Source: an uncultured Candidatus Saccharibacteria bacterium (lineage in GTDB: Bacteria > Patescibacteriota > Minisyncoccia > Phycocordibacterales > 2-01-FULL-51-21). From it: a DNA stretch of 42,011 bases. Each line of letters begins with the position of its first letter. Position 1 is the first letter of the stretch. Positions 725-33,539 of the stretch are shown here, piece by piece. The stretch lies in contig CAYGEN010000002.1 in NCBI GenBank assembly GCA_964348955.1, positions 1 through 42,011 on the forward strand. The letters run 5' to 3'. The translations under genes were made by a program, and so were the position numbers. The notes beneath the pieces were generated by a model. It saw only the letters and a program-made list of their open reading frames with translations, searched no databases and had not been told where the DNA came from.

Positions 725-2872
725 TTACTTACGTGATTCAATAATTGTCTGCGCGACGTTCTGCGGAACGGCTTCATAATGGTCAAACTCCATGGTAGAG
801 GTGCCGCGCCCTTCCGTCATTGAGCGTAGTGCGGTGGTGTAGCCAAACATTTCCGCGAGCGGCACTTTGGCGACGATAGCTTTGAGCATGCCGCGCTCGG
901 TCATGCTCTCAATCTGTCCGCGCTTTGAATTTAAATTACCGGTTACGTCTCCCATAAATTGCTCCGGCACAACGACTTCCACTTTCATAATGGGCTCAAG
1001 GAGCACTGGCGTGGCGCGGGAAGCGGCTTCTTGAAACGCTTGCGAAGCCGCGATTTTGAATGCGATTTCAGATGAGTCCACATCGTGGTAGGAGCCGTCG
1101 TAGAGCTCTACGGAAATGTCGGTCATCTTGTAGCTTGCCACAACACCGCGCTCCATTCCTTCGCGAACGCCTTTTTCAATCGCAGGAATGTATTCATGCG
1201 GCACCACTCCGCCCTTGATGTTGTTGATGAATTCAAAATTCTTTTCGCGCTTCACATTCTTTGCAATCTTTCCGCCTTCCTGAACCGGTTCAAGCGGCTT
1301 CACGCGAATCTTCACATGGCCGTACTGACCGCGACCGCCGGACTGGCGGATGTATTTCCCTTCCGCTTCCGCCGGTTTCTGAATCGTCTCGCGGTAGGCG
1401 ACCTGCGGCTTGCCGACATTTGCCGCAACGCCAAACTCGCGCTTCATGCGATCTACGATGATGTCCAGATGCAACTCACCCATGCCGGAGATGATAGTCT
1501 CCATCGTCTCTTGGTCGGTCGTAATTTTAAAGGTCGGGTCTTCGTCGGAGAGTTTTTTGAGTGCAAGACCCATTTTCTCCTGGTCTGCTTTTGTCTTCGG
1601 CTCAATGCGAAGGGAAACAACCGGTTCGGGAAAGACGATGCGTTCAAGGATGATAGGCGATTCCGGGTCGCACAAAGTGTCCCCCGTGCGCGTGCTCTTC
1701 AAGCCCACCGCCGCGGCAATGCCGCCCGCATGCACCTCCTTCATTTCTTCCCGCTGGTTGGCATGCATGCGTAAAATGCGGCCGATGCGCTCTTTCTCGC
1801 CATTCGTCGTGTTCAAAATGTAGGAGCCCGCGGCTAACACGCCGGAGTACACGCGAAAGTAGGTGAGCTGTCCGACGAAGGGGTCGGACTGAAGTTTGAA
1901 AGCGAGCGCCGCAAACGGCTCTTCGTCAGAGGGGCGCCGAAAAATCTCTTCCCCGCTCTTCGGGTCAATGCCTTTAACGGGAGGCACATCCATGGGCGAG
2001 GGCAGATAGTCAACCACGCCGTCAAGGACGAGCTGTACGCCTTTGTTTTTAAGCGCCGAGCCACAGAAAACGGGCACTATGGTGTTCATAATGGTTGCCT
2101 TGCGCAAAATCTTTTTGAGCTCCGCGAGCGGCACTTCTTTGCCATCAAGGAATTCCGCCATCGCTTCGTCATCATGCTCAACTATTCTTTCAATCAGCTC
2201 GGCATGATATTTTTCAGCTTCCGCCTTAAGCCCCTCGGGGATGTCTTTCATAACCACCTGGCTGCCCATTTCACCTTCAAAGTAGTACGCTTTCATGGTA
2301 AGCAAATCAACGACGCCTTCGTGCGCAGACTCCTCACCGATAGGAATCTGCATGCGGACGGCGGCTTTGGTGAGCCGTTCAAGAATTGATTGGAACGAGC
2401 GCTCAAACGAAGCGCCCATGCGGTCTAGCTTGTTAATGAAGCAGATGCGCGGCACACGGTAGTCGTCCGCATAGCGCCAGTTCGTTTCCGACTGCGGCTC
2501 CACTCCCGCAACGCCGTCAAAGACAACCACCGCGCCGTCCAAAACGCGAAGCGAGCGCTTCACTTCCACCGTGAAATCAATATGTCCCGGCGTGTCAATG
2601 ATATTGAAACGATGCTCAAGCTCCATATTCCCCTTGTCGTAGGTAGGCGTCCAAAAACAGGTGATGGCGGCGGAGGTAATGGTGATGCCCCGCTCGCGTT
2701 CCTGCTCCATCCAATCCGTCACGGTCTCGCCTTCGTGCACCTCGCCGATTTTGTGCGACATGCCCGTATAGAAAAGCACACGCTCGCTGGTCGTCGTTTT
2801 TCCCGCATCAATGTGCGCGATGATGCCGAAGTTACGAATTTTCTCTAGGGAGTGAAATTTTAATTCAGCCAT
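725..2872 (-). CDS. fusA: Translation elongation factor G
   Basis: ORF 725..2896. The N-terminus [33 protein letters not shown] contains the G1 motif, and the protein is EF-G-like along its full length. The ATG at 2872 is preferred over the GTG at 2896. Confidence 0.95.
2812..2860. repeat. 49-bp perfect direct repeat, copy 1 (inside the real fusA 5' coding region)
   Basis: tgtgcgcgatgatgccgaagttacgaattttctctagggagtgaaattt is identical to 3021-3069. Confidence 0.95.
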
Positions 2873-2887
2873 ACGAGTATGCATTAT

Positions 2888-3030
2888 ATCGCGCACATTG
2901 ATGCGCCGAAGGGGGTCGGGGAAACAGCGGTTTCCCTGTGGAGGAAACCAGTCCCGTTTAGGCGGGGCGTCAGAAACCGTGGGTTTCCGAAGAGGCGTGC
3001 GTAGCGAGCCGATGCACCATTGTGCGCGAT
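2888..3030. other. Structured GC-rich insert between the fusA repeats (core 2908-2998 closed by a ~17-20-bp imperfect inverted repeat)
   Basis: atcgcgcacattgatgcgcc (2888-2907) is an inverted copy of fusA codons and pairs with 3011-3030. Core hairpins are gggaaac-agcg-gtttccc, cccg-tttagg-cggg and gaaacc-gtg-ggtttc. The core is homologous to 26688-26792. Confidence 0.5.
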
Positions 3031-3069
3031 GATGCCGAAGTTACGAATTTTCTCTAGGGAGTGAAATTT
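3021..3069. repeat. 49-bp perfect direct repeat, copy 2 (decoy fusA 5' end)
   Basis: Identical to 2812-2860. Similarity continues with 2 mismatches into 3011-3020 versus 2802-2811. Confidence 0.95.
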
Positions 3070-3209
3070 GTTTTCGTTTGCCATAGTTACGGCTTGTAGC
3101 TTTTTAGCTTATAGCTTCTTAATTTTTTTAGGAAATAGCCACGTGCCACAAAAAGAAAAGCGCCGATGGCGCTCAATAAACATAACAGAAACCAACCGAA
3201 GCGCAACCG

Positions 3210-6236: not shown

Positions 6237-6263
6237 TTTATCAAACACCGAGTGTTTGATAAA
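6237..6263. repeat. 27-nt perfect palindrome TTTATCAAACAC-CGA-GTGTTTGATAAA (copy 1 of 3)
   Basis: Lies between the convergent rpmB and MBL genes. The same 12-3-12 palindrome occurs at 24924-24950 and 25112-25138. Confidence 0.9.
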
Positions 6264-21726: not shown

Positions 21727-22944
21727 CTATATAGCACCTGAAAGCGAGTAGATGGGCGAAATGACCGATATGGCAAAAAAGCCCACGCCAAGACCGATGA
21801 AAATCATAAGGAACGGTTCAATGACCGTGGTCATATTTTTTGTTTTTTGTTCCACTTCATTTTCATAAAAGACGGCAACTTGGAGAAGCATCGCGGGAAG
21901 CTGGCCGGTTTCCTCACCGACCGCGATGAGTTCGCCGACGAGTGGGGGGTACAAATCTTCGTGCGAGGTAAAGACCGAGGCGATGGGGTTTCCTTTTTCT
22001 ATATTCCCTCGCGCCTCATCAATAACCGCCTTGAAATGCGAATTCTGAACGACCTCACTCGTTATCTCCAGTCCGGAAATTATCTCAACACCTGATGAAA
22101 GAAGTGATGAGAGCGTGCGCGCCGTGCGCGCCGCATTTACCTCGCGCATTATAGTGCCGATAACGGGCGACCGCAAAAGTATATTTTCAATCACATGTTT
22201 TCCCCGCACGGTTTTAACGAGGCGCAAAAAAAACGCCGTAAACGCCGCGACGCTAATGAGTATGACGTACCAGTAGTGCAAAATAAAGTTGCTTGTGCCG
22301 ATAACCATGCGCGTCGGCAGGGGCAATTCCACATCAAACGATGCGAAGGTGGCGCTCAACGTGGGAATAACCACGACGAGCATCGTGATGCCGATGGCAA
22401 TCATAGCGGTAAAAATGACTCCGGGATATATCATCGCCCCGCGAATTTTCTTGGTCAGGTTATACGCGCGCTCCGTTTGCTCGGCAACCACCAAAAGACT
22501 ACTCCCCAGCTTTCCGCTTTCCTCTCCGGCTTTCACCATGGCGGTAAAAAGTTTTGGAAACACTTTGGGAAAGCCCTCCATTGATTCGTGAAAACTGATG
22601 CCGCGCTTAATATCGTTTGAAAGCGCGCTCAACACTTCTTTGAAGTTGGTGTTTTTCGTCTGGCGCTCAAGAACGGAGAGTCCGCGCGAGAGGGGAAGTC
22701 CTGCGCCAATCATAGCGCCAAGGTTGCGCGCAAAAATAATTTTGTCGCTCTGCTTTACATTATCCAGAAAAATATGGAAACGCTTCAAATCAATCCGCAA
22801 ACCGGTGCCGATTTCTTCAACGGATAGAACGGTCGCGGAACTTTTTCGCACTTCCGCATATACGGCAAAGCGGTCCGGCACCAAAACGGTGCCCTCCATA
22901 GGTTCCCCATCGCTCCGAACCGCTTTGTAGTGAAATTTAGGCAT
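21727..22944 (-). CDS. pilC: Type IV pilus / T2SS platform protein (GspF/PilC family)
   Basis: 405 aa with two T2SSF repeats, e.g. FTAMVKAGEESGKL and LIAVGEETGQL. Confidence 0.9.
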   Translation of the reverse strand: MPKFHYKAVRSDGEPMEGTVLVPDRFAVYAEVRKSSATVLSVEEIGTGLRIDLKRFHIFLDNVKQSDKIIFARNLGAMIGAGLPLSRGLSVLERQTKNTNFKEVLSALSNDIKRGISFHESMEGFPKVFPKLFTAMVKAGEESGKLGSSLLVVAEQTERAYNLTKKIRGAMIYPGVIFTAMIAIGITMLVVVIPTLSATFASFDVELPLPTRMVIGTSNFILHYWYVILISVAAFTAFFLRLVKTVRGKHVIENILLRSPVIGTIMREVNAARTARTLSSLLSSGVEIISGLEITSEVVQNSHFKAVIDEARGNIEKGNPIASVFTSHEDLYPPLVGELIAVGEETGQLPAMLLQVAVFYENEVEQKTKNMTTVIEPFLMIFIGLGVGFFAISVISPIYSLSGAI

Positions 22945-23063
22945 GGAATGAGAAGTCGACGTAAGAATTACGAAGTGTAATGTACGAAAAGTACGAAAAA
23001 GAGGTTCTTGACTCTTCTGCGTAATTCGTAATTCTTACTTCGTAATTCGTTCATGGTTATTGG

Positions 23064-24818
23064 TTATTCCGAAACAACGCGTAGCACTTCTTCAATGGTC
23101 GTAATGCCCTGCACCGACTTAAAAATACCGTCTTGAATCATCGGGAGCATGCCTTCGGAAATGGCTTGCTTTTCTATGGTATCGGAAGTGGCACGCTTCA
23201 TAATTAGGTCTTTAATGGTCGGTGTCACCGCAAGCACTTCGTGAATTCCGATGCGTCCGCTGAAACCATCTGGACACTCGGGTGACGCTTTGGGACGATA
23301 GAACGGAACTTTTTCCCAGGTGACATCGGCGGCGACTATTTTTTCCTCCTTGAGCACCGCGAGCACATGGTCAAGGTCAACCGATTTGGCAAGCGCGGCA
23401 ATTTCCGTTTTCGTCAGACGATACTCTTCCCGCGACTGACAGAGTCGGCGCACCAACCGCTGACCAATAACCACATTCACAGTTGAAACCAGAAGAAACG
23501 GCTCGGAGCCCATGTCAATCATGCGCGGAATGGCGCCGGCGGCGGAGTTGGTGTGAAGTGTGGAGAGTACCAAATGGCCGGTGAGCGACGCATTAATCGC
23601 AAGCGAAACCGTCTCGCTGTCGCGAATCTCGCCAACCATAATAATATCGGGGTCTTGGCGCACGAACGAACGGAGTCCCGCGGCAAACGTAAAACCAATG
23701 TCCGGTTTGACCTGCGTTTGATTAATGCGCGGCATCTGATATTCAATCGGGTCTTCAATGGTTGAAATATTTACCTCGGGAGTATTCACCATATCAAGAA
23801 GCGTATAGAGCGTGGTTGTCTTCCCCGAACCCGTTGGGCCGGTGGTGAGAAGCATGCCGGTTTTTTGCTTGAGCGCGTTGTGGATCCGCTCCAATCCCTC
23901 GCCATGGAACCCGAGCCCCTCCAGAGAAAATCCGCCCGCGCTCTCACGCAAAAGACGCATGACGACTTTCTCTCCGTAAAACACCGGCAAAATGGAAACG
24001 CGCAGAGACACTTGTTGTCCGTGCACATCAACCTTGAACCGGCCGTCTTGCGGCAGGCGTTTTTCGTCAAGCTTTAAGTTCGCCAGCACTTTGATGCGCG
24101 CGGTGATGGACGAGCCGGCCGATTTCGGCAGTGACATCGCGTCATGCAACATGCCATCAATACGATACCGCACGATGACCTCGCGCTCCATCGGCTCAAT
24201 GTGCACGTCGGATGCGTTTTGCGTTACCGCGTGGCTGAGTAGCGTATCAACAATTCTAACCACGGGCAGATTTTCGGCGAGTTTCTTGAGGTCAGTGACC
24301 GTCGCGTCGCTACCCGCCTCCATACCAGCGGCATTGAGAGACTCCGCCTCTTTTTTAATAATGTCTCCGAACTCGTCTTTGAGCGTCTTCTGATACTGCA
24401 ACAACACGCTCTTGATTGACTCGGCGTCAGTGAGACGCGGAAGAATTTTTAAGCTGACTTTTTTCTTGACAAAATCAATCGCCTCAAGGTCGTCCGTGTC
24501 AAGCATCGCCACTTCAAGCGAGTCCCCTTCCCGCTTAAATGCAATGATATTGTTGTTGCGTGCTATGGGCTCGGGAATAAGCGAGAGTACTTCTGCATCA
24601 ACTTTTTTCCCTTTGAGATTGACGAACGGGATGCCAAGCACATAAGCCTGCATGCGCCGCAGGTCGTCCTCGGTCAAAATATCGCGATTAACGAGGACGG
24701 CGCCAATGCTTTTTCCGCCCTCTTCCGCCGCCACCTTTTCAGCCGCCTCAAATTCCGTCCGCGACACCAGTCCCGAATCAACGATAAACCCCTTTAACTG
24801 TTTTTCATCAATGTGCAT
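23064..24818 (-). CDS. pilB: Type IV pilus assembly ATPase (GspE/PilB family) with an MshEN-like N-domain
   Basis: Walker A GPTGSGKTTT, Asp box, and a Walker B-like DPDIIMVGEIRD. Start at the internal ATG 24818 (MHIDEKQLKGF). Confidence 0.9.
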   Translation of the reverse strand: MHIDEKQLKGFIVDSGLVSRTEFEAAEKVAAEEGGKSIGAVLVNRDILTEDDLRRMQAYVLGIPFVNLKGKKVDAEVLSLIPEPIARNNNIIAFKREGDSLEVAMLDTDDLEAIDFVKKKVSLKILPRLTDAESIKSVLLQYQKTLKDEFGDIIKKEAESLNAAGMEAGSDATVTDLKKLAENLPVVRIVDTLLSHAVTQNASDVHIEPMEREVIVRYRIDGMLHDAMSLPKSAGSSITARIKVLANLKLDEKRLPQDGRFKVDVHGQQVSLRVSILPVFYGEKVVMRLLRESAGGFSLEGLGFHGEGLERIHNALKQKTGMLLTTGPTGSGKTTTLYTLLDMVNTPEVNISTIEDPIEYQMPRINQTQVKPDIGFTFAAGLRSFVRQDPDIIMVGEIRDSETVSLAINASLTGHLVLSTLHTNSAAGAIPRMIDMGSEPFLLVSTVNVVIGQRLVRRLCQSREEYRLTKTEIAALAKSVDLDHVLAVLKEEKIVAADVTWEKVPFYRPKASPECPDGFSGRIGIHEVLAVTPTIKDLIMKRATSDTIEKQAISEGMLPMIQDGIFKSVQGITTIEEVLRVVSE

Positions 24819-24920
24819 AGCGAGAAACGATATAGGATATAAGATATAGATAGTATAGCGCACCCCGCGCGCCTACTCGCGTCCGTTTTCAACAGGAACA
24901 GAATTGTTTATCAAACACTC

Positions 24921-24953
24921 TTGTTTATCAAACACCGAGTGTTTGATAAACAA
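24921..24953. repeat. Palindrome family copy 2 (27-nt core 24924-24950, extended to 33 nt) plus an adjacent half-site at 24907-24918
   Basis: ttg-tttatcaaacac-cga-gtgtttgataaa-caa. The half-site tttatcaaacac lies 5 nt upstream. Confidence 0.9.
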
Positions 24954-25111
24954 TGATGAGTGCATCATAGGAGTGTATGTATACACCACCCCAAAGCTAT
25001 GTTTTGGAGATGAATGCGCGAAGACGCGAAGATGAAAAACACGCGATGCGAACACACAATGCAGAAATGGCAGAGAAAAGGTATAGGAAGGCATAAGAAA
25101 AATGTACACTC

Positions 25112-25138
25112 TTTATCAAACACTCGGTGTTTGATAAA
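25112..25138. repeat. Palindrome family copy 3 (centre TCG, i.e. inverted relative to copies 1 and 2)
   Basis: tttatcaaacac-tcg-gtgtttgataaa. Confidence 0.9.
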
Positions 25139-25217
25139 TCAGAGGGATGGTGGAATGAGGAACTTATATGTTCGCGCTTTGCCATGCCAACACCAATCCC
25201 CTACTTACTGGACTGGG

Positions 25218-25353: not shown

Positions 25354-26589
25354 ATGTTTGACCTTAAAGTAATTCATTCGGTGCTGGACCAGCTTGAAGA
25401 AGAGCGCGGCATTCCGCGCGCAAAAGTGCTTGAAGCGATAGAAACGGCGCTTGCAACCGCATACAAAAAAGAATACGGGAAGCGCGGGCAGATTGTCCGA
25501 GCGTCTTTTGACATACATACCGGCAAGGCGGAATTTTCCCAAGTAAAAATCGTGGTTGACCCTGCGCAGGTCATTATGGATGAAGAAGAACATGAGGAAC
25601 GAGAGGAGAGCGGCGAGCGCGTTCGCTACAATCCCGAGCATCATATATTTCTTGAGGATGCGCAAAAAATGAAAAAGGACGTGCAGTTGGATGATGAGCT
25701 TATATTTCCTCTTGAAACAAAAGGAGACTACGGGCGTATCGCCGCTCAAACCGCCAAGCAGGTGATTATTCAAAAAATCCGCGAAGCGGAGAAGGTGTCC
25801 GTACTTGAAGAGTTCGGTAAACGGGAGGGAGAGATTGTCTCGGGAACCGTCCAGCGCATTGAGCGGGGTAATCTTTTTATTGACCTTGGACGGGCAACCG
25901 GCATTCTCCCGTACGAAGAACAAATTCCCGGCGAGCGGTATCGCCAAGGGGAGCGCATCCGCGCGCACCTCGCCTCGGTTGAAGAAAGTCCTCGGGGTAT
26001 TTTCCTGCGCCTTTCGCGCGCCCACCCGCAATTTCTCGTAAAGCTCTTCGCCCTTGAAGCGCCCGAGGTGGCGAGCGGTGCCGTTGAAATTAAAGCTATC
26101 GCCCGCGAGCCCGGCTCGCGGTCAAAAATTGCGGCGCGTTCACACGACGAACACATTGACCCCGTTGGTTCTCTCGTCGGACAGCGTGGGGTACGCGTTT
26201 CAACCGTCATGAGCGAGCTCGGCGGAGAAAAAATAGACATTATTGAGTGGTCAGAAAAACCGCAAGAGTTTATTGAGGACGCGCTCTCACCGGCAAAGGT
26301 GCTCTCGGTTACGATTGACGAGGGCGCGCACAAAGCCGTTGTTGAGGTCTCTCCCGACCAACAGTCGCTTGCCATAGGTAAAGGCGGGCAAAATGTGCGT
26401 CTTGCCGCAAAGCTGACGGGTTGGAAAATAGACATTCAGTCCCTGCGCCGAGAGCCGCTTGCAGAGAGTGAGGCGGCGGCAGAGGAAGTTGCAGATGAAA
26501 AGCCCCCTGATGTAGCACGTGATGCGATGACCACCGAGCCAGAAACGGCAGTCCAGGAAAACCAGGAAAAAACTCAAAACAAAGAATAA
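25354..26589 (+). CDS. nusA: Transcription termination/antitermination factor NusA
   Basis: 411 aa with an N-terminal domain, S1 (GEIVSGTVQRIERGNLFIDLG) and KH1/KH2 (GSRSKIA..., GKGGQNVRLAAKLTGWKIDI). Confidence 0.95.
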   Translation: MFDLKVIHSVLDQLEEERGIPRAKVLEAIETALATAYKKEYGKRGQIVRASFDIHTGKAEFSQVKIVVDPAQVIMDEEEHEEREESGERVRYNPEHHIFLEDAQKMKKDVQLDDELIFPLETKGDYGRIAAQTAKQVIIQKIREAEKVSVLEEFGKREGEIVSGTVQRIERGNLFIDLGRATGILPYEEQIPGERYRQGERIRAHLASVEESPRGIFLRLSRAHPQFLVKLFALEAPEVASGAVEIKAIAREPGSRSKIAARSHDEHIDPVGSLVGQRGVRVSTVMSELGGEKIDIIEWSEKPQEFIEDALSPAKVLSVTIDEGAHKAVVEVSPDQQSLAIGKGGQNVRLAAKLTGWKIDIQSLRREPLAESEAAAEEVADEKPPDVARDAMTTEPETAVQENQEKTQNKE

Positions 26590-26633: not shown

Positions 26634-26687
26634 AGTTCATGATAAATAAACTAACCCCAAAGCATAGTTTTAGGGCAATTTATTTTT

Positions 26688-26792
26688 GAGAACCGAAGGT
26701 TCAAAACGCTGACCCGCCCTTTCCGCAGAAAGAGCGGGTTCACGGCTCTCCTCTACGGGGAACCGGGTACGGTTCCCCGACCCCCCCTCCGC
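26688..26792. repeat. Second copy of the GC-rich structured core found inside the fusA duplication (inverted orientation)
   Basis: The reverse complement aligns with 2908-2998. Shared blocks are GGGGGTCGGGGAA, GGTTYCCCYGTRGAGGA and GGCGGG..TCAG. All three hairpins are retained with different stem sequences. Confidence 0.5.
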
Positions 26793-26969
26793 ATAGATAA
26801 CAATAAGACGGCTATAGTTGTCTTATTGTTATCTTTTCAATTTCTCTCATATACGCATACTGCCAAATACAAAGTACAACGAGTATGAATACTTATGCTA
26901 TAGCATAAGTATTCATACTCGTTGGGTTGATATTGGCGTTGATATTGGTGTTAAGGCAATCGTAAAATA
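26789..26969. repeat. Conserved 3' module of the beta-propeller paralogs, copy 1
   Basis: Contains hairpin gataacaataagac/gtcttattgttatc (26796-26833, followed by TTTT) and a 46-nt perfect palindrome (26878-26923). Confidence 0.9.
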
Positions 26970-29276
26970 TCAGAAATTCTTGAATCCTGTTTGTACTCTG
27001 GTTGCGGCTACATCCACCGTAAGATAAGAGTCCGGTACATCGGAAACCTCTCCGTCGCTTCCCACTATCGTAATGGCGAAATTTTTTGGCAGTCCGGCTG
27101 GCGCTTTGGAAAAGGTAACGGTCATAACCGAACTAGCCGAAGAGTCACCGCCTTGGGAAGGGTCCAAGGAAGTAAAGGGTGAAAATGTAACGGTACTCCC
27201 CGGCGGCAGTTCTGGCGAGTCCGAAACAAGCGTAAGCGTTATGTTGGAAAGCGGTCTGTTCGGAGTTGCATATCCAGCAAACGGCACGGCAACGATGGTG
27301 GTTTTAGCGACCGCACCGCCCGTGCCGATAAATGTAACGCTCGTCTGAATATTGGGACTATAAATATAGAATCCCGCGGGCGATACCGTTACCGATGTAT
27401 CTGCACGCGCCTCTCCCGCAAGCCCCTCGCAGTGAAGTGAAAGCTGATAGGTGTTGCCTACTCCCGTGAATGGCCCGACGTCGCTTTGCACCTGTGTTAT
27501 GGTCGGCACCGATTTAGGCCCTCCCCAGTTTAAAACCCCAGGGTTCGCGCTCGCCGTGCAAGTATTAAAGCTGTTAGAGCCGAACCATGAGAGTTCAGTA
27601 TTCTGGCCATCCCCGACAACTGCCGGATTTGCCGTGAGTGTGAGCGTCTGCGGCGACTTTTTATGCACGCCGCCCTTTGCCGGACTGAACTCAATCCAGC
27701 CGATAACATCGCCGCCCCACGCATGGCCGTAGAAATCTTTGCCTTCGGTGATGCCGACTTGGTAGTTGGAAGTGCCACACCCGGCAAAATCACCTTCGCC
27801 AATTGCTGACTCACAATCCAAACTAATCCACCCGTCCCAGCCGCCTGCCTGAGCGTCAATCGCGGAGAGTGCCCGCGCCCAGCCCGTTATTATTGCATCT
27901 GGAGAACCATTGTTGGAATAGGCATCCGGGTGAAAAGGGTCCCCACCCTCATTACTTTCCCCAAACGCAATCCACCCCACATTATCGCTCCACGCATACC
28001 CGGTCATGTCTCCAGTAAAATCATCAATCGTAACGCCGTAGGGAGGTATTGGCGTGCCTCCGAGGGGACACCCGGGAAGCGTTGTGCCGTCAAGAATCCA
28101 ATCCAGAGGGTTTGACAGTGGAGCGCTGAAGATTGAATCTGTGGCTACTCCAGTCTCACCTTCAACACCCCCAAAGAGATAAACGCGGTCGCCGATGGTT
28201 GCAATGCTTGAGAATACGAGCCCCACGGGGAGCTTTGCTCCTGTATTAACCCATCTCAATGGATCAGAAACCGGGGCGCGGAATATCATGTTGGTTATAC
28301 TACCCGGACCTTCGTACCCCCCAAAAAGGTAGACATAGTCGCCGATGACTTTGAGTTGGGAATGTGCAAGGCCGTTAGTGAGCGTGGCACCAGTATTGAT
28401 CCAGTTCGTGGGATCAGAAACTGGGGCGCTGTAGATGGTGTTGAGAGAATTAGAAAAAGCATCTCTTCCCCCAAAGAGATAAACATGGTCGCCGATGACG
28501 GCAAGTTGGGGGGCATAAAGACTACCAGGGAGTGTGGCATTGGTATTAATCCAGTTCGTGGGATCAGAAACTGGGGCGCGGAATATCATGTTGGTTATAG
28601 TGCCCGGACCTTCGTACCCCCCAAAAAGGTAGATATAGCCGCCAATGACAGCTGATTGGGAATGTGCAAGGCCGTTAGTGAGCGGGGCGCCGGTATTGCT
28701 CCAGTTCGTGGGATCAGAAACTGGGGCGCGGTAGATGATTTTGCTAGCAGAACCAAAAGGAAGGCTTCCCCCAAAGAGATATACATAGTCATCAGTGCCG
28801 TCACTATCAACATCAACGACAGCAAGTTGGGAACCATAAAGACCACTGGGGAGTGGTGTGCCGCCGGCATTGCTCCAGTTCGTGGGATCAGAAACCGGGG
28901 CGCGGTAGATGGTGTTGGTGACAAAAAAGTTAGTTCTTCCTCCAAAAAGATAAACATAGTCATCAGCGCCATCGCTATCAACATCAACGACAGCGAGAGA
29001 AGAGAGGTAGAGGGGCTCGTGAAGTTTGCCGACGACCACATTGTCGGAGGTACCATCGCCGTTTAAGTCGCAGTTCGCCGAGCTGAAGCTAATCCATCCC
29101 ACATTGTCGCTCCATGCCCAGCCGTAGACATTGTTAGAAGAAGCCGCGCGTGCAATTACTCCTTTTGAAAGAAGTATGTCAATGGCAAAAGAGCCGCCGA
29201 CCGTGAGAAGCGCCACGAGAAGCGCAATGAATATCTTGCGGTTCATAATGAGTGCGATACCGTTCATATCACTCAT
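26970..29276 (-). CDS. Secreted six-bladed Kelch-like beta-propeller protein with three GWxW..GWIxF motifs and C-terminal Ig-like domains (paralog 1)
   Basis: 768 aa. Signal-like MNRKIFIALLVALL. YGWAWSDNVGWISF, GYAWSDNVGWIAF and GHAWGGDVIGWIEF motifs. Six blades of the pattern YVYLFGG...I(Y/F)RAPVSDPTNW. The true start is probably ATG 29267 or 29246 because TATACT abuts the first ATG. Confidence 0.8.
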   Translation of the reverse strand: MSDMNGIALIMNRKIFIALLVALLTVGGSFAIDILLSKGVIARAASSNNVYGWAWSDNVGWISFSSANCDLNGDGTSDNVVVGKLHEPLYLSSLAVVDVDSDGADDYVYLFGGRTNFFVTNTIYRAPVSDPTNWSNAGGTPLPSGLYGSQLAVVDVDSDGTDDYVYLFGGSLPFGSASKIIYRAPVSDPTNWSNTGAPLTNGLAHSQSAVIGGYIYLFGGYEGPGTITNMIFRAPVSDPTNWINTNATLPGSLYAPQLAVIGDHVYLFGGRDAFSNSLNTIYSAPVSDPTNWINTGATLTNGLAHSQLKVIGDYVYLFGGYEGPGSITNMIFRAPVSDPLRWVNTGAKLPVGLVFSSIATIGDRVYLFGGVEGETGVATDSIFSAPLSNPLDWILDGTTLPGCPLGGTPIPPYGVTIDDFTGDMTGYAWSDNVGWIAFGESNEGGDPFHPDAYSNNGSPDAIITGWARALSAIDAQAGGWDGWISLDCESAIGEGDFAGCGTSNYQVGITEGKDFYGHAWGGDVIGWIEFSPAKGGVHKKSPQTLTLTANPAVVGDGQNTELSWFGSNSFNTCTASANPGVLNWGGPKSVPTITQVQSDVGPFTGVGNTYQLSLHCEGLAGEARADTSVTVSPAGFYIYSPNIQTSVTFIGTGGAVAKTTIVAVPFAGYATPNRPLSNITLTLVSDSPELPPGSTVTFSPFTSLDPSQGGDSSASSVMTVTFSKAPAGLPKNFAITIVGSDGEVSDVPDSYLTVDVAATRVQTGFKNF

Positions 29277-29320
29277 AGTATACTAGACTATGCGCATCAC
29301 TGGAGAGGGCGGTGTGGATT
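29212..29320. repeat. 109-bp perfectly identical 5' module (promoter plus first codons), copy 1
   Basis: Identical to 32032-32140. Contains the TAGTATACT -10 and a start-region hairpin. Confidence 0.9.
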
Positions 29321-29342
29321 CAAAAATCCCAAACCATAGGGG

Positions 29343-29367
29343 TGTAGCAAGGTGACACCTTGCTACA
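29343..29367. repeat. Solo copy of the IS200-like hairpin tgtagcaaggtg-a-caccttgctaca
   Basis: Perfect 12-bp arms. The same hairpin flanks the Y1 transposase gene 3.3 kb away. Confidence 0.85.
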
Positions 29368-29368
29368 C

Positions 29369-29534
29369 GGCACCGCATAGATAACCATAAGACGACTATA
29401 GCCGTCTTATGGTTATCTTTTCAATTTCTCCCATATACGCATACTGCCAAATACAAAGAGTACGAATACTTATGCTATAGCATAAGTATTCGTACTAGTT
29501 GGGTTGATATTGGTGTTAAGGCAATCGTAAAATA
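29369..29534. repeat. Conserved 3' module, copy 2
   Basis: Hairpin gataaccataagacg/cgtcttatggttatc (29380-29417, followed by TTTT) and a 38-nt palindrome (29459-29496). Confidence 0.9.
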
Positions 29535-32096
29535 TCAGAAATTCTTGAATCCTGTTTGTACCTTGACTGCTTTCACGAGCACGGTGACGGTGGAGTCCGG
29601 AGAAGGGTTGTTGGTGTCGCTTCCCACCACTTTAATATAAAAGTCTTGCGGCAGTGGGTATGGCGCTTTGGAAAAGGTAATGGTCATGAGCGAACCCTCG
29701 CTATACGCGGAAGAGCCGGTAAATGAGGAGGGTGCGAAGGTAATAGTACTTCCGGGTGGCAATGCGGGAGAGACCGTCCATGAAAGGTTTATGGTATTGT
29801 CCGTATTATAACCGGCAACCGGCGTGGCAAATATTTTGGTTTTAGCAACCGCGCCGCCCGTGCCGATAAACGCAACCGTTGGGTCACTAAGACGAGAAAT
29901 GGAAAAATAAGGAGCTACTACCGTTACCAATGTACTAGCATACGCTTCTCCCCCAGACCCCTCGCAGCGAAGTGAAAGCTGATAGGTGTTGCCTACTCCC
30001 GTGAACGGCCCGACGCTACTACTCGAAACAGGCGGGGGCGACTTTTTCTCACTCCCGACCTCGTTCCAGTTGCCAACTTCCACACCAGTGCCAGCCTGAC
30101 TCGCGCTCGCCGTACAAGTATTAAAGCTGTCAGAGCCGAACCATGAGAGTTGAGTATTCTGGCCATCTCCGACAACCGCCGGATTTGCCGTGAGCGTGAG
30201 GTTCTGCGGCGCCTTTTTGTGTACACCAAATTTTATGGCACTGACAACATTTGCCGGCTTGAACTCAATCCAGCCGATAACATCGCCGCCCCACGCATGG
30301 CCATAGAAATTTTCGCCCCCTGTAATACCCACTTGGTAATTGGAAGTGTTATTACAGCCGTTATCGGCAAAACCACTTTTGTCTTCTGCTGATTTACAAT
30401 CCAAGCTAATCCACCCGTCCCAGCCGCCTGCGTCGGCGTCAATCGCAGAAAGCGCCCGCGCCCAGCCGGTTATTTTCGCGTCGATAGAATCATTGTCGCT
30501 TCGCGCTTCGCACAACGGCTTGCAGAGTTTGCTTGCTGTTTTGTCCCGTCCATCAATGCGACCATCTTTGTCATTATCACCAAACGCAATCCACCCCACA
30601 TTGTCGCTCCACGCATACCCGGTCATCGCTCCGGTAAACTCGTTAATGGTAACGCCATAGGGAGGTACCGGCTCTCCCTCTAAAGGGCAACCGGGAAGCG
30701 TCATGCCGTCAATAATCCAATCAGTCGGGTCGGAAAGGGGGGCGCGAAAAATGTAATCATGTACTTCCACCCCTACTTTCAACCCGCTACCCTCACCTAA
30801 GTTGTCAATCCCACCGAAGAGATACACATAGTCGCCGATGGTTTCAATATTTGAATACGCACGCCATGCAGGAATTCTTGCACCCGTATCAACCCACTTC
30901 GTTGGGTCGGATACGGGGGCGCGGAAGATATTGCTGTAGAAAGTGCTTCCGAAAAGGTAGACGTAGTCGCCGATGACAGCGAGTGATGAGTTAACGACTC
31001 CCGGCTCGCCACCATTAAAATTGCCATCGCACGGCGTACCGGTATCAGTAAACGGGAGTTTCTTACCGGTATCCTCCCAATTTCCAGGGAAATATGGGTC
31101 AGTGATATCTGCGCGAAGGATGGAATCACTGCGGCCATGAAACCATACAACCGAATCGCCTAAGTATTCATCATTTGTCCCGCCAAAGAGGTAGGCGTAC
31201 TTGCCGATAACAGCTATATGCGACTTTTGAAGGCCGTGCTCCACATACTGTGTAAGAGTTTTTGGACACGTTCTAGGAGACATCTCACGCCAAAAAGTGA
31301 TTGGCGGAAGTTTTTTGCCGGTGTCTACCCAGTTTGCCGGGAATGTCGGGTCGGTGGTGTCTGCGCGGTAGATGACATCGGAACTTTGGTTGAAGGTATC
31401 ACGGATGGAGGCACCACCGAAGAGGTAAACGTATTTTTTGCCATTGGAGTCGGGGATGATGGCGATGGAAGAGTGTTCAAGTTTACCCGGAAGACGTATG
31501 GCCGAGTTTGCCTCCGTCATGTTCATCCAGTTCGTCGGGTCAGAAACGGGAGCGCGGTAAATAATGTCTTGTATGCCCCCGCTGTAATTACCTTCTTCGT
31601 TCACAGTATAGTCGCTCCCACCGAAGAGGTAGATGTATGGGTCTATCTTTATAATGCTTGAATTGCCGAGATTGCTCGGGAGCACTTTGCCGGTGTCAAT
31701 CCACTTTGTCGGGTCGGCGGTGTCTGCGCGGTAGATGACATTGGTGTAAGGGCCATATGAGCCCCCGTCCTTGTCAGTGCCCCCGAAGAGAAAAACGGAG
31801 TCACCGACAACTTGGAGGTGCGAGCTGGCAAGCGGTGCGGGAAGTCTGCCGGCAATTACATTGTCAGAAGTCCCGTCGCCGTCCAAATCACAGCTGTTTG
31901 AGTTGAAACTTATCCACCCGATGTTGTCGCTCCATGCCCAGCCGTAGACATTATCAGTAGAAGCCGCACGGGCAATCGCTCCTTTTGAAAGAAGTGAGTC
32001 TAGGGCAAGAGAGCCACCGAGCGCGAGGAGTGCCACGAGAAGCGCAATGAATATCTTGCGGTTCATAATGAGTGCGATACCGTTCATATCACTCAT
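29535..32096 (-). CDS. Secreted Kelch-like beta-propeller protein, paralog 2
   Basis: 853 aa. The N-terminal 24 aa are identical to paralog 1. It has the same three GW motifs and the same C-terminus VQTGFKNF. The blades are more divergent (YRADTADPTKW, YRADTTDPTFPANW, LRADITDPYFPGNW). Confidence 0.8.
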   Translation of the reverse strand: MSDMNGIALIMNRKIFIALLVALLALGGSLALDSLLSKGAIARAASTDNVYGWAWSDNIGWISFNSNSCDLDGDGTSDNVIAGRLPAPLASSHLQVVGDSVFLFGGTDKDGGSYGPYTNVIYRADTADPTKWIDTGKVLPSNLGNSSIIKIDPYIYLFGGSDYTVNEEGNYSGGIQDIIYRAPVSDPTNWMNMTEANSAIRLPGKLEHSSIAIIPDSNGKKYVYLFGGASIRDTFNQSSDVIYRADTTDPTFPANWVDTGKKLPPITFWREMSPRTCPKTLTQYVEHGLQKSHIAVIGKYAYLFGGTNDEYLGDSVVWFHGRSDSILRADITDPYFPGNWEDTGKKLPFTDTGTPCDGNFNGGEPGVVNSSLAVIGDYVYLFGSTFYSNIFRAPVSDPTKWVDTGARIPAWRAYSNIETIGDYVYLFGGIDNLGEGSGLKVGVEVHDYIFRAPLSDPTDWIIDGMTLPGCPLEGEPVPPYGVTINEFTGAMTGYAWSDNVGWIAFGDNDKDGRIDGRDKTASKLCKPLCEARSDNDSIDAKITGWARALSAIDADAGGWDGWISLDCKSAEDKSGFADNGCNNTSNYQVGITGGENFYGHAWGGDVIGWIEFKPANVVSAIKFGVHKKAPQNLTLTANPAVVGDGQNTQLSWFGSDSFNTCTASASQAGTGVEVGNWNEVGSEKKSPPPVSSSSVGPFTGVGNTYQLSLRCEGSGGEAYASTLVTVVAPYFSISRLSDPTVAFIGTGGAVAKTKIFATPVAGYNTDNTINLSWTVSPALPPGSTITFAPSSFTGSSAYSEGSLMTITFSKAPYPLPQDFYIKVVGSDTNNPSPDSTVTVLVKAVKVQTGFKNF

Positions 32097-32140
32097 AGTA
32101 TACTAGACTATGCGCATCACTGGAGAGGGCGGTGTGGATT
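32032..32140. repeat. 109-bp identical 5' module, copy 2
   Basis: Identical to 29212-29320. Confidence 0.9.
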
Positions 32141-32228
32141 ATCGCCCCCTAGCCCTCTACTCTACTAACTCTCTACTCTATGAGCACAAACCCACGCGAG
32201 CAGTCACATAGCCACGCGAGCAAAACAA

Positions 32229-32245
32229 GCAAGGTGCCACCTTGC
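32229..32245. repeat. Degenerate copy of the IS200-like hairpin (gcaaggtg-c-caccttgc)
   Basis: Occupies the same position relative to the 3' module as the copy at 29343-29367. Confidence 0.7.
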
Positions 32246-32250
32246 GGCGC

Positions 32251-32436
32251 GGCACCGCATGCATAGCAATAAGACGGCTATAGCCGTCTTATGGTTATCT
32301 TTTCAATTTCTCCCATTCTCCCATATACGCATACTGCCAAATACAACTAGTACGAATACTTATGCTATAGCATACGTATTCGTACTAGTTGGGTTGGTAT
32401 TGGCATTGATATTGGCGTTAAGACAATCGTAAAATA
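32251..32436. repeat. Conserved 3' module, copy 3 (orphan)
   Basis: Hairpin ataagacggcta/tagccgtcttat (32269-32292) and a 42-nt palindrome with one mismatch (32347-32388). Confidence 0.9.
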
Positions 32437-32472
32437 TCAAAAATTCTGGAATCCTGTTTGTACCTTAACTGC
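32437..32472 (-). pseudogene. Stump of a third beta-propeller paralog (last 11 codons plus stop)
   Basis: The reverse complement reads AVKVQTGFQNF*, compared with KAVKVQTGFKNF* in paralog 2. Similarity ends at about 32472, 8 nt from the hairpin at 32481. Confidence 0.6.
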
Positions 32473-32480
32473 AAGGGGGG

Positions 32481-32505
32481 TGTAGCAAGGTGACACCTTG
32501 CTACA
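32481..32505. repeat. IS200-like hairpin plus duplicated left-end sequence (32481-32527)
   Basis: tgtagcaaggtg-a-caccttgctaca followed by gagcattaaaggtatagttagt. The same ~45-nt unit recurs at 32680-32728. Confidence 0.85.
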
Positions 32506-32679
32506 GAGCATTAAAGGTATAGTTAGTCGTATAGTCTCAATAGCCTTGCACCATTTGATGGAATAACATCAAGCTATGGCATACACATCAAATCAGAATC
32601 TCCTATCTTCCTAAGATAAGACAAGAGGCAACACAGCTGGTTCATAGGGGCTGGAGTGCTTGAAAAGTCGGGTGGCAAG

Positions 32680-33471
32680 GTAGCAAGGTGTCACCTTGCT
32701 ACAATAAGCATTAAAGGTATAGTTAGTTAAAGGTATGGGAAACCGAGTGCCGTTTGCGCCAGATGAATGGTACCATTGTTATAGTCGTGGTGTTGAGAAA
32801 CGCCGCGTATTTGAAAACACCAGAGACTACCAACGTTTTATACAAACTCTATACTTAGCTAACAGCACCGAACCGATTCATCAAGACAACCTGCGTAAAT
32901 TCTCCCATGAAGAAATACTGAGCCAGCGGCGCGGCGACTTACTCGTTGCGGTCGGTGCATATTGCCTAATGCCAAACCATTTTCACTTACTATTGAAAGA
33001 GCTTGTAGATGGCGGGATTACACAGTTTATGCGTAAGGTAGGCACTGCCTATACTATGTATTTCAATATTAAAAATGAGCGTGTTGGTAATCTGTTCAAC
33101 AAACCATTTCGTTCAAAACATATCAATGACGATCGATATTTGAAGTGGGTGCCTCAATATTTACACCTTAATCCTGCTGAACTCTTCGAGCAAGGATGGA
33201 AAGAGGGCAAAGTAAAGAACTTCAAAAGTCTTACACAAAAACTGCGGCACTACCCATATAGCAGTTTTAGCGACTACTGCGGTATACAGCGTGTGGAAAG
33301 ATCAATTCTTCATGAGCCTTCGGTGGAAATGTTGAATGAGGATATGACTCCTGCCGCTAAACTCATTTCCAAAGCGCGTGGTTACTATCAAGAGCTTTCT
33401 TTGTGACAAAGTTATAGCTAGCGTTATAGTAAGGTAGCAAGGAGGAGAGGTAGCAAGGTGACACCTTGCTA
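32680..33471 (+). mobile_element. IS200/IS605-family (tnpA-only) element or REP/RAYT-like unit bounded by cognate hairpins
   Basis: Hairpins at 32680-32702 and 33451-33471 flank the Y1 transposase ORF. GC content is visibly lower than in the surrounding sequence. Confidence 0.7.
32735..33406 (+). CDS. tnpA: HUH-Y1 transposase (IS200-like / RAYT-like)
   Basis: 223 aa. The HUH motif is in YCLMPNHFHLLLKE. The catalytic Tyr region is QYLHLNPAE. Confidence 0.85.
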   Translation: MGNRVPFAPDEWYHCYSRGVEKRRVFENTRDYQRFIQTLYLANSTEPIHQDNLRKFSHEEILSQRRGDLLVAVGAYCLMPNHFHLLLKELVDGGITQFMRKVGTAYTMYFNIKNERVGNLFNKPFRSKHINDDRYLKWVPQYLHLNPAELFEQGWKEGKVKNFKSLTQKLRHYPYSSFSDYCGIQRVERSILHEPSVEMLNEDMTPAAKLISKARGYYQELSL

Positions 33472-33539
33472 TAGCGCCAGTTGCTTTTGTGCTGTGTGTC
33501 TGTGTGTTAAGCTAGAAAATATTAGCGGCGGGAATAACA

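Follow-up and report, generated by a model that had tools for sequence, protein, structure and literature searches.

A conserved folded sequence family at gene ends in Patescibacteria: a candidate small mobile element

Two copies of a structured core at fusA and at the nusA/Kelch junction

The window (the whole stretch of DNA analysed here, 42,011 nt of contig CAYGEN010000002.1) carries a working fusA gene (725-2872, minus strand) and, further along, the ORF 25354-26589, which was confirmed as NusA and is followed by genes described earlier as beta-propeller genes and now identified as Kelch-repeat genes. Two GC-rich stretches, one at each of these places, had been proposed to be copies of one structured element, and by reading the sequence directly we have located both at the predicted positions. 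For the 12-mer GGGGTCGGGGAA, the window contains exactly two occurrences, one at 2912-2923 (+) and the other at 26773-26784 (-). The covariance model matched at 2906-2994 (+) with 74.8 bits (E 1.3e-16), here called copy A, and at 26682-26790 (-) with 54.6 bits (E 8.9e-12), here called copy B; both copies are among the 52 family members from which the model was built, so these scores are not independent of it. All the remaining window matches had E >= 0.05 and corresponded to sub-hairpins of copies A/B on the other strand. The covariance-model search proposed in the original prediction thus returned exactly two copies in the window; >118 family loci with the exact pattern lie elsewhere.

The core of copy A (2906..2994, +) was delimited by the covariance-model match, the alignment and pair counts. 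It contains, on the plus strand, the hairpin P1 (2917-2924 with 2931-2938), the variable hairpin P2 (2953-2956 with 2963-2966) and the hairpin P3 (2970-2978 with 2982-2990), with GAAGGGGGTC and GTGGAGGAAACC as purine-rich joining strands. Upstream of it lie the left direct repeat L (2805..2860), corresponding to codons 5 to 23 of working fusA, a spacer defined by sequence and ORF reading (2861..2887) and an inverted arm T' (2888..2905, +), derived from the fusA segment ATCGCGCACATTGATGCG (codons I-A-H-I-D-A). T' is the reverse complement of 2805-2822 in working fusA at 18/18 positions, and its score against this upstream copy was 36 (shuffled 95th percentile, 16). The spacer holds the short palindrome CATAC-GA-GTATG and, on the minus strand, provides the present fusA start (ATG 2872-2870, N-terminus MAELKF). 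On the other side, the core is followed by the linker GCGTGCGTAGCGAGCCGAT (2995..3013, +), which comparison with the family loci revealed to be a degenerate form of the GAGTGAGATAGCGAAGCG linker of the family, and by the right direct repeat R (3014..3069), the displaced old fusA 5' end. L and R are identical at 54 of 56 positions (repeat family D20), both differences falling in the 17 nt of R that adjoin the element and the other 39 nt being identical. The old fusA start codon (3084-3082) opens a 66-aa ORF that runs through the element (2884-3084, minus).

Copy A had been described as lying inside a fusA duplication. It does lie there, but the core belongs to a larger gene-end footprint (see below), and the direct repeat and the inverted fusA fragment that make up this "duplication" are therefore the footprint of the element itself. 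Copy A would have inserted in the P-loop-coding region of fusA, with EF-G now being read from a new start within the footprint. The EF-G of the window is full length and 84% identical to a Kaiserbacteria EF-G, the closest found. Relatives contained neither MAELKF nor MANENKF. When an unoccupied fusA allele was searched for, the metagenome runs of the window gave only the occupied form, and the exact S7 protein was found in a single contig of 1.9 kb.

The core of copy B (26682..26790, -, covariance-model match) comprises P1 (26756-26779), a long P2 hairpin (26712-26739) and P3 (26688-26702), all on the minus strand, and its G-rich strand gave a fold z-score of -3.6. Directly 5' of the core on this strand, and separated from it by ATGCGGA, there is a long palindrome (26795..26834, -; inverted repeats I5, I6 and I8, family D7), which forms a terminator-like hairpin after the Kelch gene 26970-29276. 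Since it is present in all three Kelch modules, the palindrome is regarded as native. As predicted, the other two modules carry the GTAGCAAGGTGACACCTTGCTAC hairpin at the same junction (families D7 and D10). An imperfect AT-flanked hairpin (AAAAATAAA...TTTATTTAT; 26643..26687, -) follows the core and has the form of the terminator-like hairpin found after the core in the "GGGATGAATGCG" subclass. The flank statistics revealed no significant direct or inverted repeat left around copy B. Copy B sits just after the Kelch-gene terminator palindrome and is probably an old, eroded copy. The window also contains a separate REP-like family of GTAG...CTAC hairpins (29339-33478, D10).

Structure, distribution and targets of the core

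We have found the core at >118 exact-pattern loci from about 100 species, all Patescibacteria, each species carrying 1-3 copies with the exact pattern. The family is confined to Patescibacteria (Paceibacteria/Parcubacteria). The viral contigs scanned with the core pattern gave 0 matches, and hence no sign of a phage origin.

The core has the layout GGGGGTCGGGGAA-hairpin-CCCGTGGAGGA-(optional hairpin)-xAACC-GNG-GGTTx. It is formed by two covarying hairpins of similar sequence, P1 and P3, and an optional third one, P2, joined by purine-rich strands that are invariant across orders of Paceibacteria. Covariation of the hairpins had been put forward from the two window copies; two sequences alone could not show this, but the 52-member family does. 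P1 plus P3 were paired in 98.7% of the cells, and double-sided changes numbered 74 versus 20.7 in shuffles, with 0/500 shuffles reaching the observed value. The covariation also far exceeded that of slid controls. P1, the variable middle hairpin and P3 proved all to be real stems. The long-range helix that had been suggested in addition (GGAAACC/GGTTTCC) was not kept, being 75% paired with one pair unpaired in 37 of the 52 members, and it competes with P3. G-U pairs exceeded A-C pairs on the G-rich strand by about 12 to 3.

Rfam 15 at the gathering threshold gave 0 matches in the window. The 24 related loci yielded nothing but tRNA, tmRNA and, away from the element, one group I intron, so that the element itself was unmatched there too, and a permissive scan of copy A produced only a chance match to SNORD70 (E 2.9). 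We found no publication containing the motif, and text searches for papers on RNAs or mobile elements of the candidate phyla radiation (CPR) also gave nothing relevant. The family of ~100 species, its covariation and the empty Rfam result support the original prediction of a conserved structured element that belongs to no known RNA family.

A same-strand tRNA gene was found 32-198 nt upstream of the core in 60 of 119 cases, covering 19 amino-acid types, and an opposite-strand tRNA just upstream in 0 of 119. At seven loci, the core lay between two same-strand tRNA genes. Further targets were tmRNA and the 3' ends of protein genes, and rplL sequence was also among the target arms. Opposite-strand 5'-end targets were fusA plus a putative glycosyltransferase-like gene, murD and RNase H, the last three being named from N-terminal motifs read by eye and not from tool results. 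The element as an insert within a tRNA gene was rejected, ARAGORN and Rfam placing complete tRNAs upstream. A single spurious call, a "tRNA-His" in L010, fell over an element.

The footprint at gene ends and signs of movement

The loci share a defined order: the conserved gene end (x), a hairpin centre that is often the terminator of the gene, an inverted x, the core, the linker and a direct repeat of x. The inverted copy of the upstream gene end was present in 78/104 loci and the direct repeat was significant in 75/104, with lengths ranging from ~15 to >70 nt (56 nt in the window, 63 in L001 and 71 in L116). A long hairpin, often a terminator, stood 5' of the core in 84/112 loci, its 3' foot preceding the core. 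An inverted copy of the gene's own 3' end was located downstream of 82% of the core-bearing tRNAs versus 19% of those without it, the tRNAs behind this 19% having other cores in the same scaffold. Without exception, the complete gene was located towards the 5' side along the G-rich strand, an arrangement in which the gene survives.

The inverted arms were considered under two further ideas. A primer-binding site for mature tRNA was rejected, as the arm often runs into genomic sequence past the tRNA end and not into CCA. A selected RNA helix was likewise rejected: the arm mismatches were 35 G.T, 23 A.C and 64 transversions, and with transversions prevailing and no wobble excess the arms behave as decaying DNA copies.

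The right repeats differed among loci. Read by eye, those of L006, L027 and L051 were in frame with synonymous changes, for which an att-like exchange with a foreign gene end would fit better than a simple duplication, whereas those of L116 and L001 were nearly perfect. In view of this, more than one route may exist. The arms gave conflicting observations as well, L001 showing that the arm can travel with the element and L065 and L069 having arms that are local.

The portable unit spans about 110-120 nt, from GGGAG-GGGGTC to GAGTGAGAT(AGCGAAGCG). The sequences at its two ends, GGAATCGAAC and GTGAGATTCC, are inverted relative to each other with an 8/10 match and mimic the tRNA T-loop region, which makes them indistinguishable from target sequence. 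Core and linker were 100% identical in L065 (tRNA-Thr), L069 (tmRNA) and, from a different genome, L070 (tRNA-Gln), with the flanks matching each local target. Copies were 85% similar within one genome versus 68% between genomes, although gene conversion, and not recent movement, could be the source of the identity within a genome. L001 has the features of a young insertion, with its 63-nt direct repeat and an inverted arm matching a different tRNA. The spacing of a tRNA-Thr pair was 13-31 nt in metatranscriptome contigs from other organisms versus 148 nt in L007, where it holds the element. No presence/absence polymorphism was found within a single species. L037 contained tandem arrays from repeated insertion.

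We have then looked for a partner enzyme. Clustering of the ORFs within 3 kb of the 119 cores gave no recurrent protein family; the top-ranking clusters consisted of false ORFs that cross the element, and a LAGLIDADG-like family was near only 4-7 loci and so judged incidental. The Pfam scan of the 28 larger window ORFs revealed no transposase, integrase or reverse-transcriptase domain, and no TnpA, TnpB, integrase or reverse-transcriptase gene was near the core among ~118 loci. The search for a cargo-carrying version yielded only L061, in which 2.2 kb of ordinary-looking genes separate tRNA-His from the element. Judged by eye, these genes code for a membrane protein and for dCTP-deaminase-like and acetyltransferase-like proteins; there is no mobility enzyme among them.

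The core was also present in contigs of four wastewater metatranscriptomes (word depth 20-140), assembled contigs without strand information in which DNA carry-over is possible. Together with the cores located between same-strand tRNAs, these contigs make transcription of the element likely. The G-rich strand would be the one transcribed, together with the upstream tRNA or gene. A search for RNA-seq runs covering the window returned none.

A putative mobile element and the competing explanations

In our preferred reading, to which we assign a probability of about one half, the 100-nt stretch represents the conserved core of a non-autonomous mobile element that is small, measuring about 110-210 bp. 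Of the three options raised in the original prediction (small RNA, ribozyme-like motif, miniature mobile element), the last is the one that best fits the target copies in the flanks and the identical units at different targets. Insertion could be a copy-and-join event performed by an enzyme encoded elsewhere. In such an event, the folded single-stranded unit (RNA or ssDNA) would engage a short conserved target sequence, and DNA synthesis that switches strand at the hairpin close by would generate the direct-inverted-direct triplication of the target end. Presumably, only the insertions leaving a complete gene copy would survive.

This layout has a parallel in template-switch rearrangements (fold-back inversion, duplication-inverted triplication-duplication, quasi-palindrome), which would leave the same order of x, hairpin, rc(x), insert and x. 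Those are sporadic and without a defined insert, whereas here the same 110-nt unit is found each time; the likeness is one of layout only. That one strand carries conserved hairpins suggests a folded single strand as the form recognised, and a hairpin-adjacent site is shared with CTX-phi attP(+), integron attC, IS200/IS605 and PATE, IS1111/IS110 and group IIC introns. None of these systems leaves a direct-inverted-direct target triplication, however, and no TnpA, TnpB, DEDD transposase, Xer-type gene or intron domain is near the element, which also leaves the Rfam intron and IS-linked RNA models unmatched. More specifically, target duplication is the rule here, which sets the element apart from an IS200/IS605 PATE or a TnpB guide RNA. 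Group IIC introns have a similar position after a hairpin, but the element is ~100 nt long and no group II intron model matches it. Retron ncRNAs have inverted arms too; those of the element copy the neighbouring gene, and no reverse-transcriptase gene is adjacent. Of the features expected of a SINE-like retroelement moving by target-primed reverse transcription (variable-length target duplication, an RNA intermediate, a partner reverse transcriptase), variable repeats were seen, and transcription is likely.

Miniature repeats (MITEs such as Correia/NEMIS, Rickettsia palindromic elements, ERIC, REP/REPIN) are likewise short, ORF-less, multi-copy and structured, often co-transcribed with their neighbours and tolerated in or beside essential genes. 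The element has the short, ORF-less and multi-copy character of a classical MITE but not its fixed short target-site duplication; its flanks are direct and inverted target copies of no fixed length. It also differs from REP/REPIN in lacking a GTAG/CTAC foot and in having two different hairpins instead of a simple palindrome.

The rival that survives best, although we hold it to be unlikely, is a gene for a small RNA that serves the cell in connection with tRNA or translation; the core would act as a three-way junction to which a protein or ligand binds, and the spread to many loci would be secondary. The gene-end copies would then be a closing stem (at tRNA loci, a minihelix resembling the acceptor/T-arm), and RNase P, RNase Z, the CCA-adding enzyme or RNase III would release the RNA from read-through transcripts. 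Purifying selection on a cellular RNA would likewise agree with the extreme conservation of the core sequence, and the joining strands invariant across Paceibacteria orders, the covariation of P1 and P3, the constant sense orientation with the upstream tRNA, the seven loci inside tRNA operons and the metatranscriptome contigs are all compatible with such an RNA. Moreover, the inverted arm, core and right repeat were predicted to fold as a closed three-way junction (z -2.9 to -8.6), and on a reading by eye the closing helix at tRNA loci would contain G.A pairs in tandem (AUCGAAC opposite GUGAGAU), a feature that proteins commonly bind. A closing stem, however, is difficult to reconcile with the arms themselves, which were closer to the upstream gene copy than to the downstream repeat in 89/104 loci, paired significantly with the downstream repeat in only 50/104, and had mismatches that were mostly transversions without wobble excess. 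The fusA, rplL, RNase H and murD arms carry no tRNA-like meaning, and one to several copies occur per species at different places, with other cores sharing the scaffold.

Targeting of tRNA/tmRNA 3' ends, restoration of the gene and direct repeats of variable length are the hallmark of integrase-borne islands. The element could accordingly be the attachment-site remnant of an integrative element, a mini-island moved by a tyrosine integrase acting from elsewhere, with the repeats as attL/attR, the left gene end as the replacement copy and the core as the arm binding the integrase or an accessory protein. The resemblance to tRNA/tmRNA islands (tyrosine-integrase att sites, cis-mobilisable elements) covers the 3'-end site, the intact gene, the flanking direct repeat and the tandem arrays. 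It is strengthened by the clustering of L/R differences at the element-proximal end of R (2/17 versus 0/39 in the window), by the same GGAG to GCGT/GTGT change in four genomes and by the in-frame synonymous right repeats of L006, L027 and L051, as expected of gene ends from different lineages. We nevertheless regard this origin as improbable. The unit measures just 110-210 bp and not kilobases, no integrase is inside or near any copy, and 19 tRNA types, tmRNA and several protein genes, including unrelated targets at protein-gene 5' ends, are too diverse for one sequence-specific integrase. In addition, covarying hairpins indicate a folded single strand and not duplex protein-binding sites, and the att model does not predict the inverted target copy.

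Least probable of all, and in our view very doubtful, is a cis-acting RNA-level 3'-end element of the upstream gene (a processing site, self-cleaving ribozyme or stabiliser/insulator) carried along by gene-end duplication, for which REP elements and theta ribozymes are the comparators. Theta ribozymes directly adjoin the tRNA and fold into the HDV double pseudoknot. The core resembles them as a small structured RNA downstream of tRNA in sense orientation; it is always just downstream of a gene end plus hairpin, and in one subclass a terminator-like hairpin follows it. Yet its 32-198 nt distance from the tRNA end, with the inverted repeat in between, precludes abutment, its fold is different, its exact motif is absent from the viral contigs scanned, and at fusA and the other opposite-strand targets the G-rich strand is antisense. 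An HDV-like fold was rejected by inspection, the G-rich core having too few C-runs for the nested pseudoknot. As neither a ribozyme nor another Rfam model matches, no evidence supported the ribozyme-like option of the original prediction. A precedent for catalytic RNA 3' of tRNAs exists in the HDV-like theta ribozymes reported 3' of phage tRNAs (PMC10879173).

Returning to the mobile element, its sequence family is, at the least, well supported as a candidate new entry of Rfam, and it has two sister motifs. A bolder and quite tentative reading, on which we would not insist, is that of a new bacterial mobile-element class: a ~110-nt folded nucleic acid whose ends, mimicking a short conserved target such as the tRNA T-loop region, would base-pair to each of the two strands once the target is opened and which would be stitched in by strand-switching, hairpin-assisted replication or repair. 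The gene end would be left in direct-inverted-direct triplication, with no protein encoded by the element nearby. Together with families 2 and 3, found in the same scaffold and seen here as sister elements, it could constitute a Patescibacteria-wide superfamily using essential-gene ends as safe harbours.

The element accounts for puzzling partial gene duplications in Patescibacteria metagenome-assembled genomes and for mis-annotations such as the 66-aa ORF of the window and the spurious "tRNA-His" of L010. In Patescibacteria, genomes are tiny and few mobile elements have been recognised, and here a conserved, protein-less folded element of more than 100 species repeatedly lands in essential genes, those for tRNA, tmRNA and EF-G among them, and the genes are not destroyed. 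It would represent a novel type either of genome parasite or of RNA, and strand-switch insertion, if true, would represent a previously unknown way to insert DNA at chosen conserved sequences.

Structure and distribution of the core

The two GC-rich structured stretches of the original prediction were both found in place, and the 12-mer GGGGTCGGGGAA had exactly two occurrences in the window, one per strand. The covariance-model search suggested at that stage was run with a model built from the wider family and returned two strong matches, copy A at 2906-2994 (+; 74.8 bits, E 1.3e-16) and copy B at 26682-26790 (-; 54.6 bits, E 8.9e-12), scores that are not independent of the model since its alignment contained both copies. 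No further strong match to this model was found anywhere in the 42-kb window. The G-rich strand of copy B folded with a z of -3.6 relative to shuffles.

Structure was analyzed in alignment A2, comprising 52 distinct family members. Hairpin P1 is formed by GGGGAAAC/GTTTCCCC with a free loop and hairpin P3 by xxxAACC-GNG-GGTTxxx. In P1 and P3, 98.7% of the cells were paired, and 74 double-sided changes were counted vs 20.7 in column shuffles, 0 of 500 shuffles reaching the observed count; the result is also far above slid controls. The hairpin covariation first noticed between the two window copies was thus borne out for both stems. The outer four pairs of P3 vary freely (e.g., GC 24, AU 12, CG 6, GU 4, UA 2) and at its apex AACC-GNG-GGTT stays constant. 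Between P1 and P3, about 60% of the members have one more hairpin, P1 and P3 aside, whose sequence is free and whose tip is often GCGAAGC. No variation occurs in the joining strands, GAAGGGGGTC and GTGGAGGA, which the search pattern itself forces in part. As G-U pairs exceed A-C pairs on the G-rich strand (about 12 vs 3), this is the structured strand. The long-range helix that had also been proposed is not conserved: it competes with P3, is 75% paired and has one pair broken in 37 of the 52 members.

Three loci in other Patescibacteria genomes (L026, in its first core, L074 and L115) have an extra 40-60-nt insert within the P3 loop, after CCGTGGG. The inserts of L026 and L074 have a common end, GAAGTACTCTTGTGGTG, suggesting a second tiny element, one that may target the core's own loop.

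Scanning a one-genome-per-species collection with the pattern GGGGTCGGGGAA-N(6-20)-CCYGTRGAGGA recovered at least 118 stretches from about 100 different genomes, so that copies in relatives, whose existence had been left to be checked, do exist. All matches listed were from Patescibacteria, mostly Paceibacteria/Parcubacteria lineages, including Kaiser-, Taylor-, Yonath-, Nomura-, Wolfe-, Campbell-, Lipton- and Zambryskibacteria; the EF-G of the window is 84% identical to a Kaiserbacteria EF-G. Viral contigs gave no match to the pattern. In agreement with the earlier view that no known RNA family applied, neither the window copies nor the elements of 24 related loci matched an Rfam family, and the literature searched did not contain the motif string in a relevant context. 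Whatever its mechanism, the element makes a solid candidate for a new family of RNA/DNA motifs, along with two sister motifs.

Footprint, targets and sister families

Read on the G-rich strand, the footprint starts with the targeted gene end (x), followed by a short spacer, in most cases itself a hairpin or terminator, then T' (x in inverted copy), the core, a linker, a direct repeat of x (R) and the native flank. T' ends 6-8 nt 5' of the core, and the linker is often GAGTGAGAT, with or without AGCGAAGCG. Among the 104 loci with enough flank for these statistics, T' significantly matched the upstream gene end in 78 and the downstream repeat in 50; in 89 it matched the upstream end better. A significant direct repeat was present in 75. 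A single long hairpin (median 23 bp, 72-nt span), whose 3' arm precedes the core, is present in 84 of 112 loci and is unbranched in 75 of the 84.

At seven loci two same-strand tRNA genes enclose the core and leave almost no spacer, which places its G-rich strand in a tRNA precursor. The core was also present, in several contexts, in contigs of four metatranscriptomes (word depth 20-140), data that are without strand information and may include DNA carry-over. Transversions predominate among the arm mismatches, without an excess of wobble pairs. Hence, the arms behave as decaying DNA copies and not like a selected RNA helix.

The targets comprise 3' ends of same-strand genes and, on the opposite strand, 5' gene ends. 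A same-strand tRNA gene ends 32-198 nt 5' of the core in 60 of 119 cores, 19 amino-acid types being represented, and an opposite-strand tRNA occupies that position in none of the 119. An inverted copy of the tRNA's own 3' end lies downstream of 82% of these core-bearing tRNAs vs 19% of tRNAs without this core. Other targets are tmRNA (L048, L069, L088), an RNA-like 3' end common to L044, L079, L095 and L100, and, among same-strand protein genes, the 3' ends of rplL and of a small gene ending in ...APQWSKR*. Opposite-strand genes are hit at conserved motifs: fusA in the window (copy A) and, as named from motif reading, a glycosyltransferase-like gene (KSNWGGAQRYV), a putative murD and a putative RNase H (DGGARGNPGP). 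Whatever the target, the whole gene is always on the 5' side of the element. It is demonstrated that the element favours gene ends and the feet of hairpins, as are the direct-inverted-direct target copies.

Some loci deserve separate mention. ARAGORN called a 93-nt "tRNA-His" across the L010 element, beginning ~6 nt ahead of the core and extending 87 nt beyond the core start, likely a false prediction due to the T-arm retained in the right repeat. In L061 (400-2700), 2.2 kb with three ordinary-looking genes (by eye, membrane protein, dCTP-deaminase-like and acetyltransferase-like) separate tRNA-His from the core and the inverted arm and direct repeat that match this tRNA; either a version with cargo or an insertion of later date could explain this. 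In a Kaiserbacteria contig (L087), a group I intron (6498-6708) precedes the element by ~1.3 kb, and LAGLIDADG-like genes adjoin the target tRNA in L011, L036, L103 and L107.

Transfer RNAs with an inverted 3'-end copy but without the studied core carry other cores in the same scaffold, which consists of tRNA, terminator, inverted tRNA 3' end, core, GTGACCGA and direct repeat. Family 2, assigned by eye in L002, L003, L039, L040, L045, L077, L088, L103 and L107, reads GGCCGGAG-hairpin-CGAGGCGGGGTCGCGA-hairpin-TCGTGACCGA before the direct repeat; family 3, likewise assigned in L021, L025, L084 and L103, reads GCCCGATTGAG-hairpin-CCAATCGGGGTACTGA-hairpin. The pieces in common comprise TCGAA, which follows the arm, GTGA(CC)GAGAT, which precedes the repeat, and a GGGGTCG/GGGGTAC motif. 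These data suggest that the studied core and families 2 and 3 form a superfamily of tRNA-end elements.

The two copies in the window

At copy A, fusA is intact (CDS 725-2872, minus strand). The left repeat (2805-2860) is followed by a spacer (2861-2887) that provides the current fusA start codon (N-terminus MAELKF), an inverted copy of the fusA P-loop-coding segment (2888-2905, 18/18), the core (2906-2994, +), a degenerate linker (2995-3013) and the right repeat (3014-3069), which is the old fusA 5' end and whose start opens a 66-aa ORF running through copy A. The repeats differ at two positions, both within the 17 element-proximal nt, the other 39 nt being identical; at other targets too, changes in the right repeat cluster at the end next to the element. 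Since both repeat copies carry a lineage-specific peptide absent from relatives, the fusA repeat arose in the window's lineage. Between rpsG and fusA of the str operon, the segment 3210-4069 is located, with an 80-aa coiled-coil-like ORF (3210-3452, -), a HicA toxin gene (3522-3755, -) and an overlapping upstream 105-aa ORF (3752-4069, -), likely a HicB-type partner despite having no Pfam match.

Copy B lies 3' of a Kelch-repeat gene (26970-29276) on the same strand, 7 nt past the gene's terminator-like palindrome (26795-26834), which is common to all three Kelch modules. An imperfect AT-flanked hairpin follows it, as in the "GGGATGAATGCG" subclass, and flank statistics revealed no significant repeats left around it. 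We read copy B as an old, eroded copy at a native hairpin.

The region (26970-32130 and 32228-32463) holds two tandem Kelch-repeat beta-propeller genes (768 and 853 aa, 150-nt internal repeats) and, after them, three copies of their 3' module, with the terminator palindrome and a second palindrome of 48 nt, CAACGAGTATGAATACTTATGCTATAGCATAAGTATTCATACTCGTTG. As had been noted, modules 2 and 3 have another hairpin at the junction occupied by copy B in module 1. It is REP-like, GTAGCAAGGTG(A/T)CACCTTGCTAC, with five copies (29339-29372, 32221-32254, 32477-32510, 32675-32708 and 33445-33478) and the GTAG...CTAC foot typical of RAYT-mobilised REPs. A perfect palindrome, TTTATCAAACACCGAGTGTTTGATAAA, occurs at 6237-6263, 24924-24950 and 25107-25144, two of its copies flanking a 101-aa ORF just upstream of nusA; it may act as an operator or represent a further small repeat.

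Evidence for mobility and possible insertion routes

Copies after tRNA-Thr (L065) and tmRNA (L069) of one genome and after tRNA-Gln of another (L070) are 100% identical from GGGAG-GGGGTC to GAGTGAGAT, with arms on both sides that match each local target. Copies from the same genome are more alike (median 85%) than those from different genomes (68%; 95th percentile 80%). L001 has a nearly perfect 63-nt repeat, yet its inverted arm derives from a different tRNA, so the arm can travel with the element. A tandem pair with a tRNA fragment in between was found in L037, and the tRNA-Thr pair flanking the element in L007 is 148 nt apart vs 13-31 nt in wastewater metatranscriptome contigs of other organisms. 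No protein family recurred within 3 kb of the cores, and the larger window ORFs scanned contained no transposase, integrase or reverse-transcriptase domain. A folded, conserved and portable unit of ~110 nt with no linked enzyme is demonstrated.

We class the element with the miniature mobile repeats, as one whose core is structured, and give its being a non-autonomous mobile element a probability of about 0.5. Any particular insertion chemistry deserves far less confidence, and a categorically new route is unlikely. In the route envisaged, a trans-acting enzyme would insert the single-stranded folded unit, whose ends, GGAATCGAAC and GTGAGATTCC, appear similar to the opposite strands of the T-loop region and so could base-pair with an opened target on both of its strands. 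DNA synthesis would switch strand at a nearby hairpin, giving x, hairpin, rc(x), unit and x, and selection would retain only the events leaving a whole gene.

The rivals to the mobile-element reading are a cellular small-RNA gene, with the arms as processing stems, a cis-acting 3'-end element and an integrase att remnant. Some right repeats look like another lineage's gene ends, in frame and with synonymous changes, which would fit att-like exchange or import by transformation; others look like fresh duplications (L116, L001). This mixture counts against a single simple insertion route. The element shares gene-end targeting and gene restoration with tRNA-integrating islands, small size and structure with MITEs, REPs and Rickettsia palindromic elements, and hairpin-foot placement with group IIC introns and the IS200/IS605 and IS1111 families, but departs from each in defining features.

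The window also encodes ComEC, a pilin-like protein (N-terminal methylation motif), RecJ and PilC-like and PilB-like proteins (8909-10396, 11163-15021, 15784-17523 and 21727-24863). Such DNA-uptake machinery is typical of Patescibacteria, and it bears on how elements of this kind could spread.
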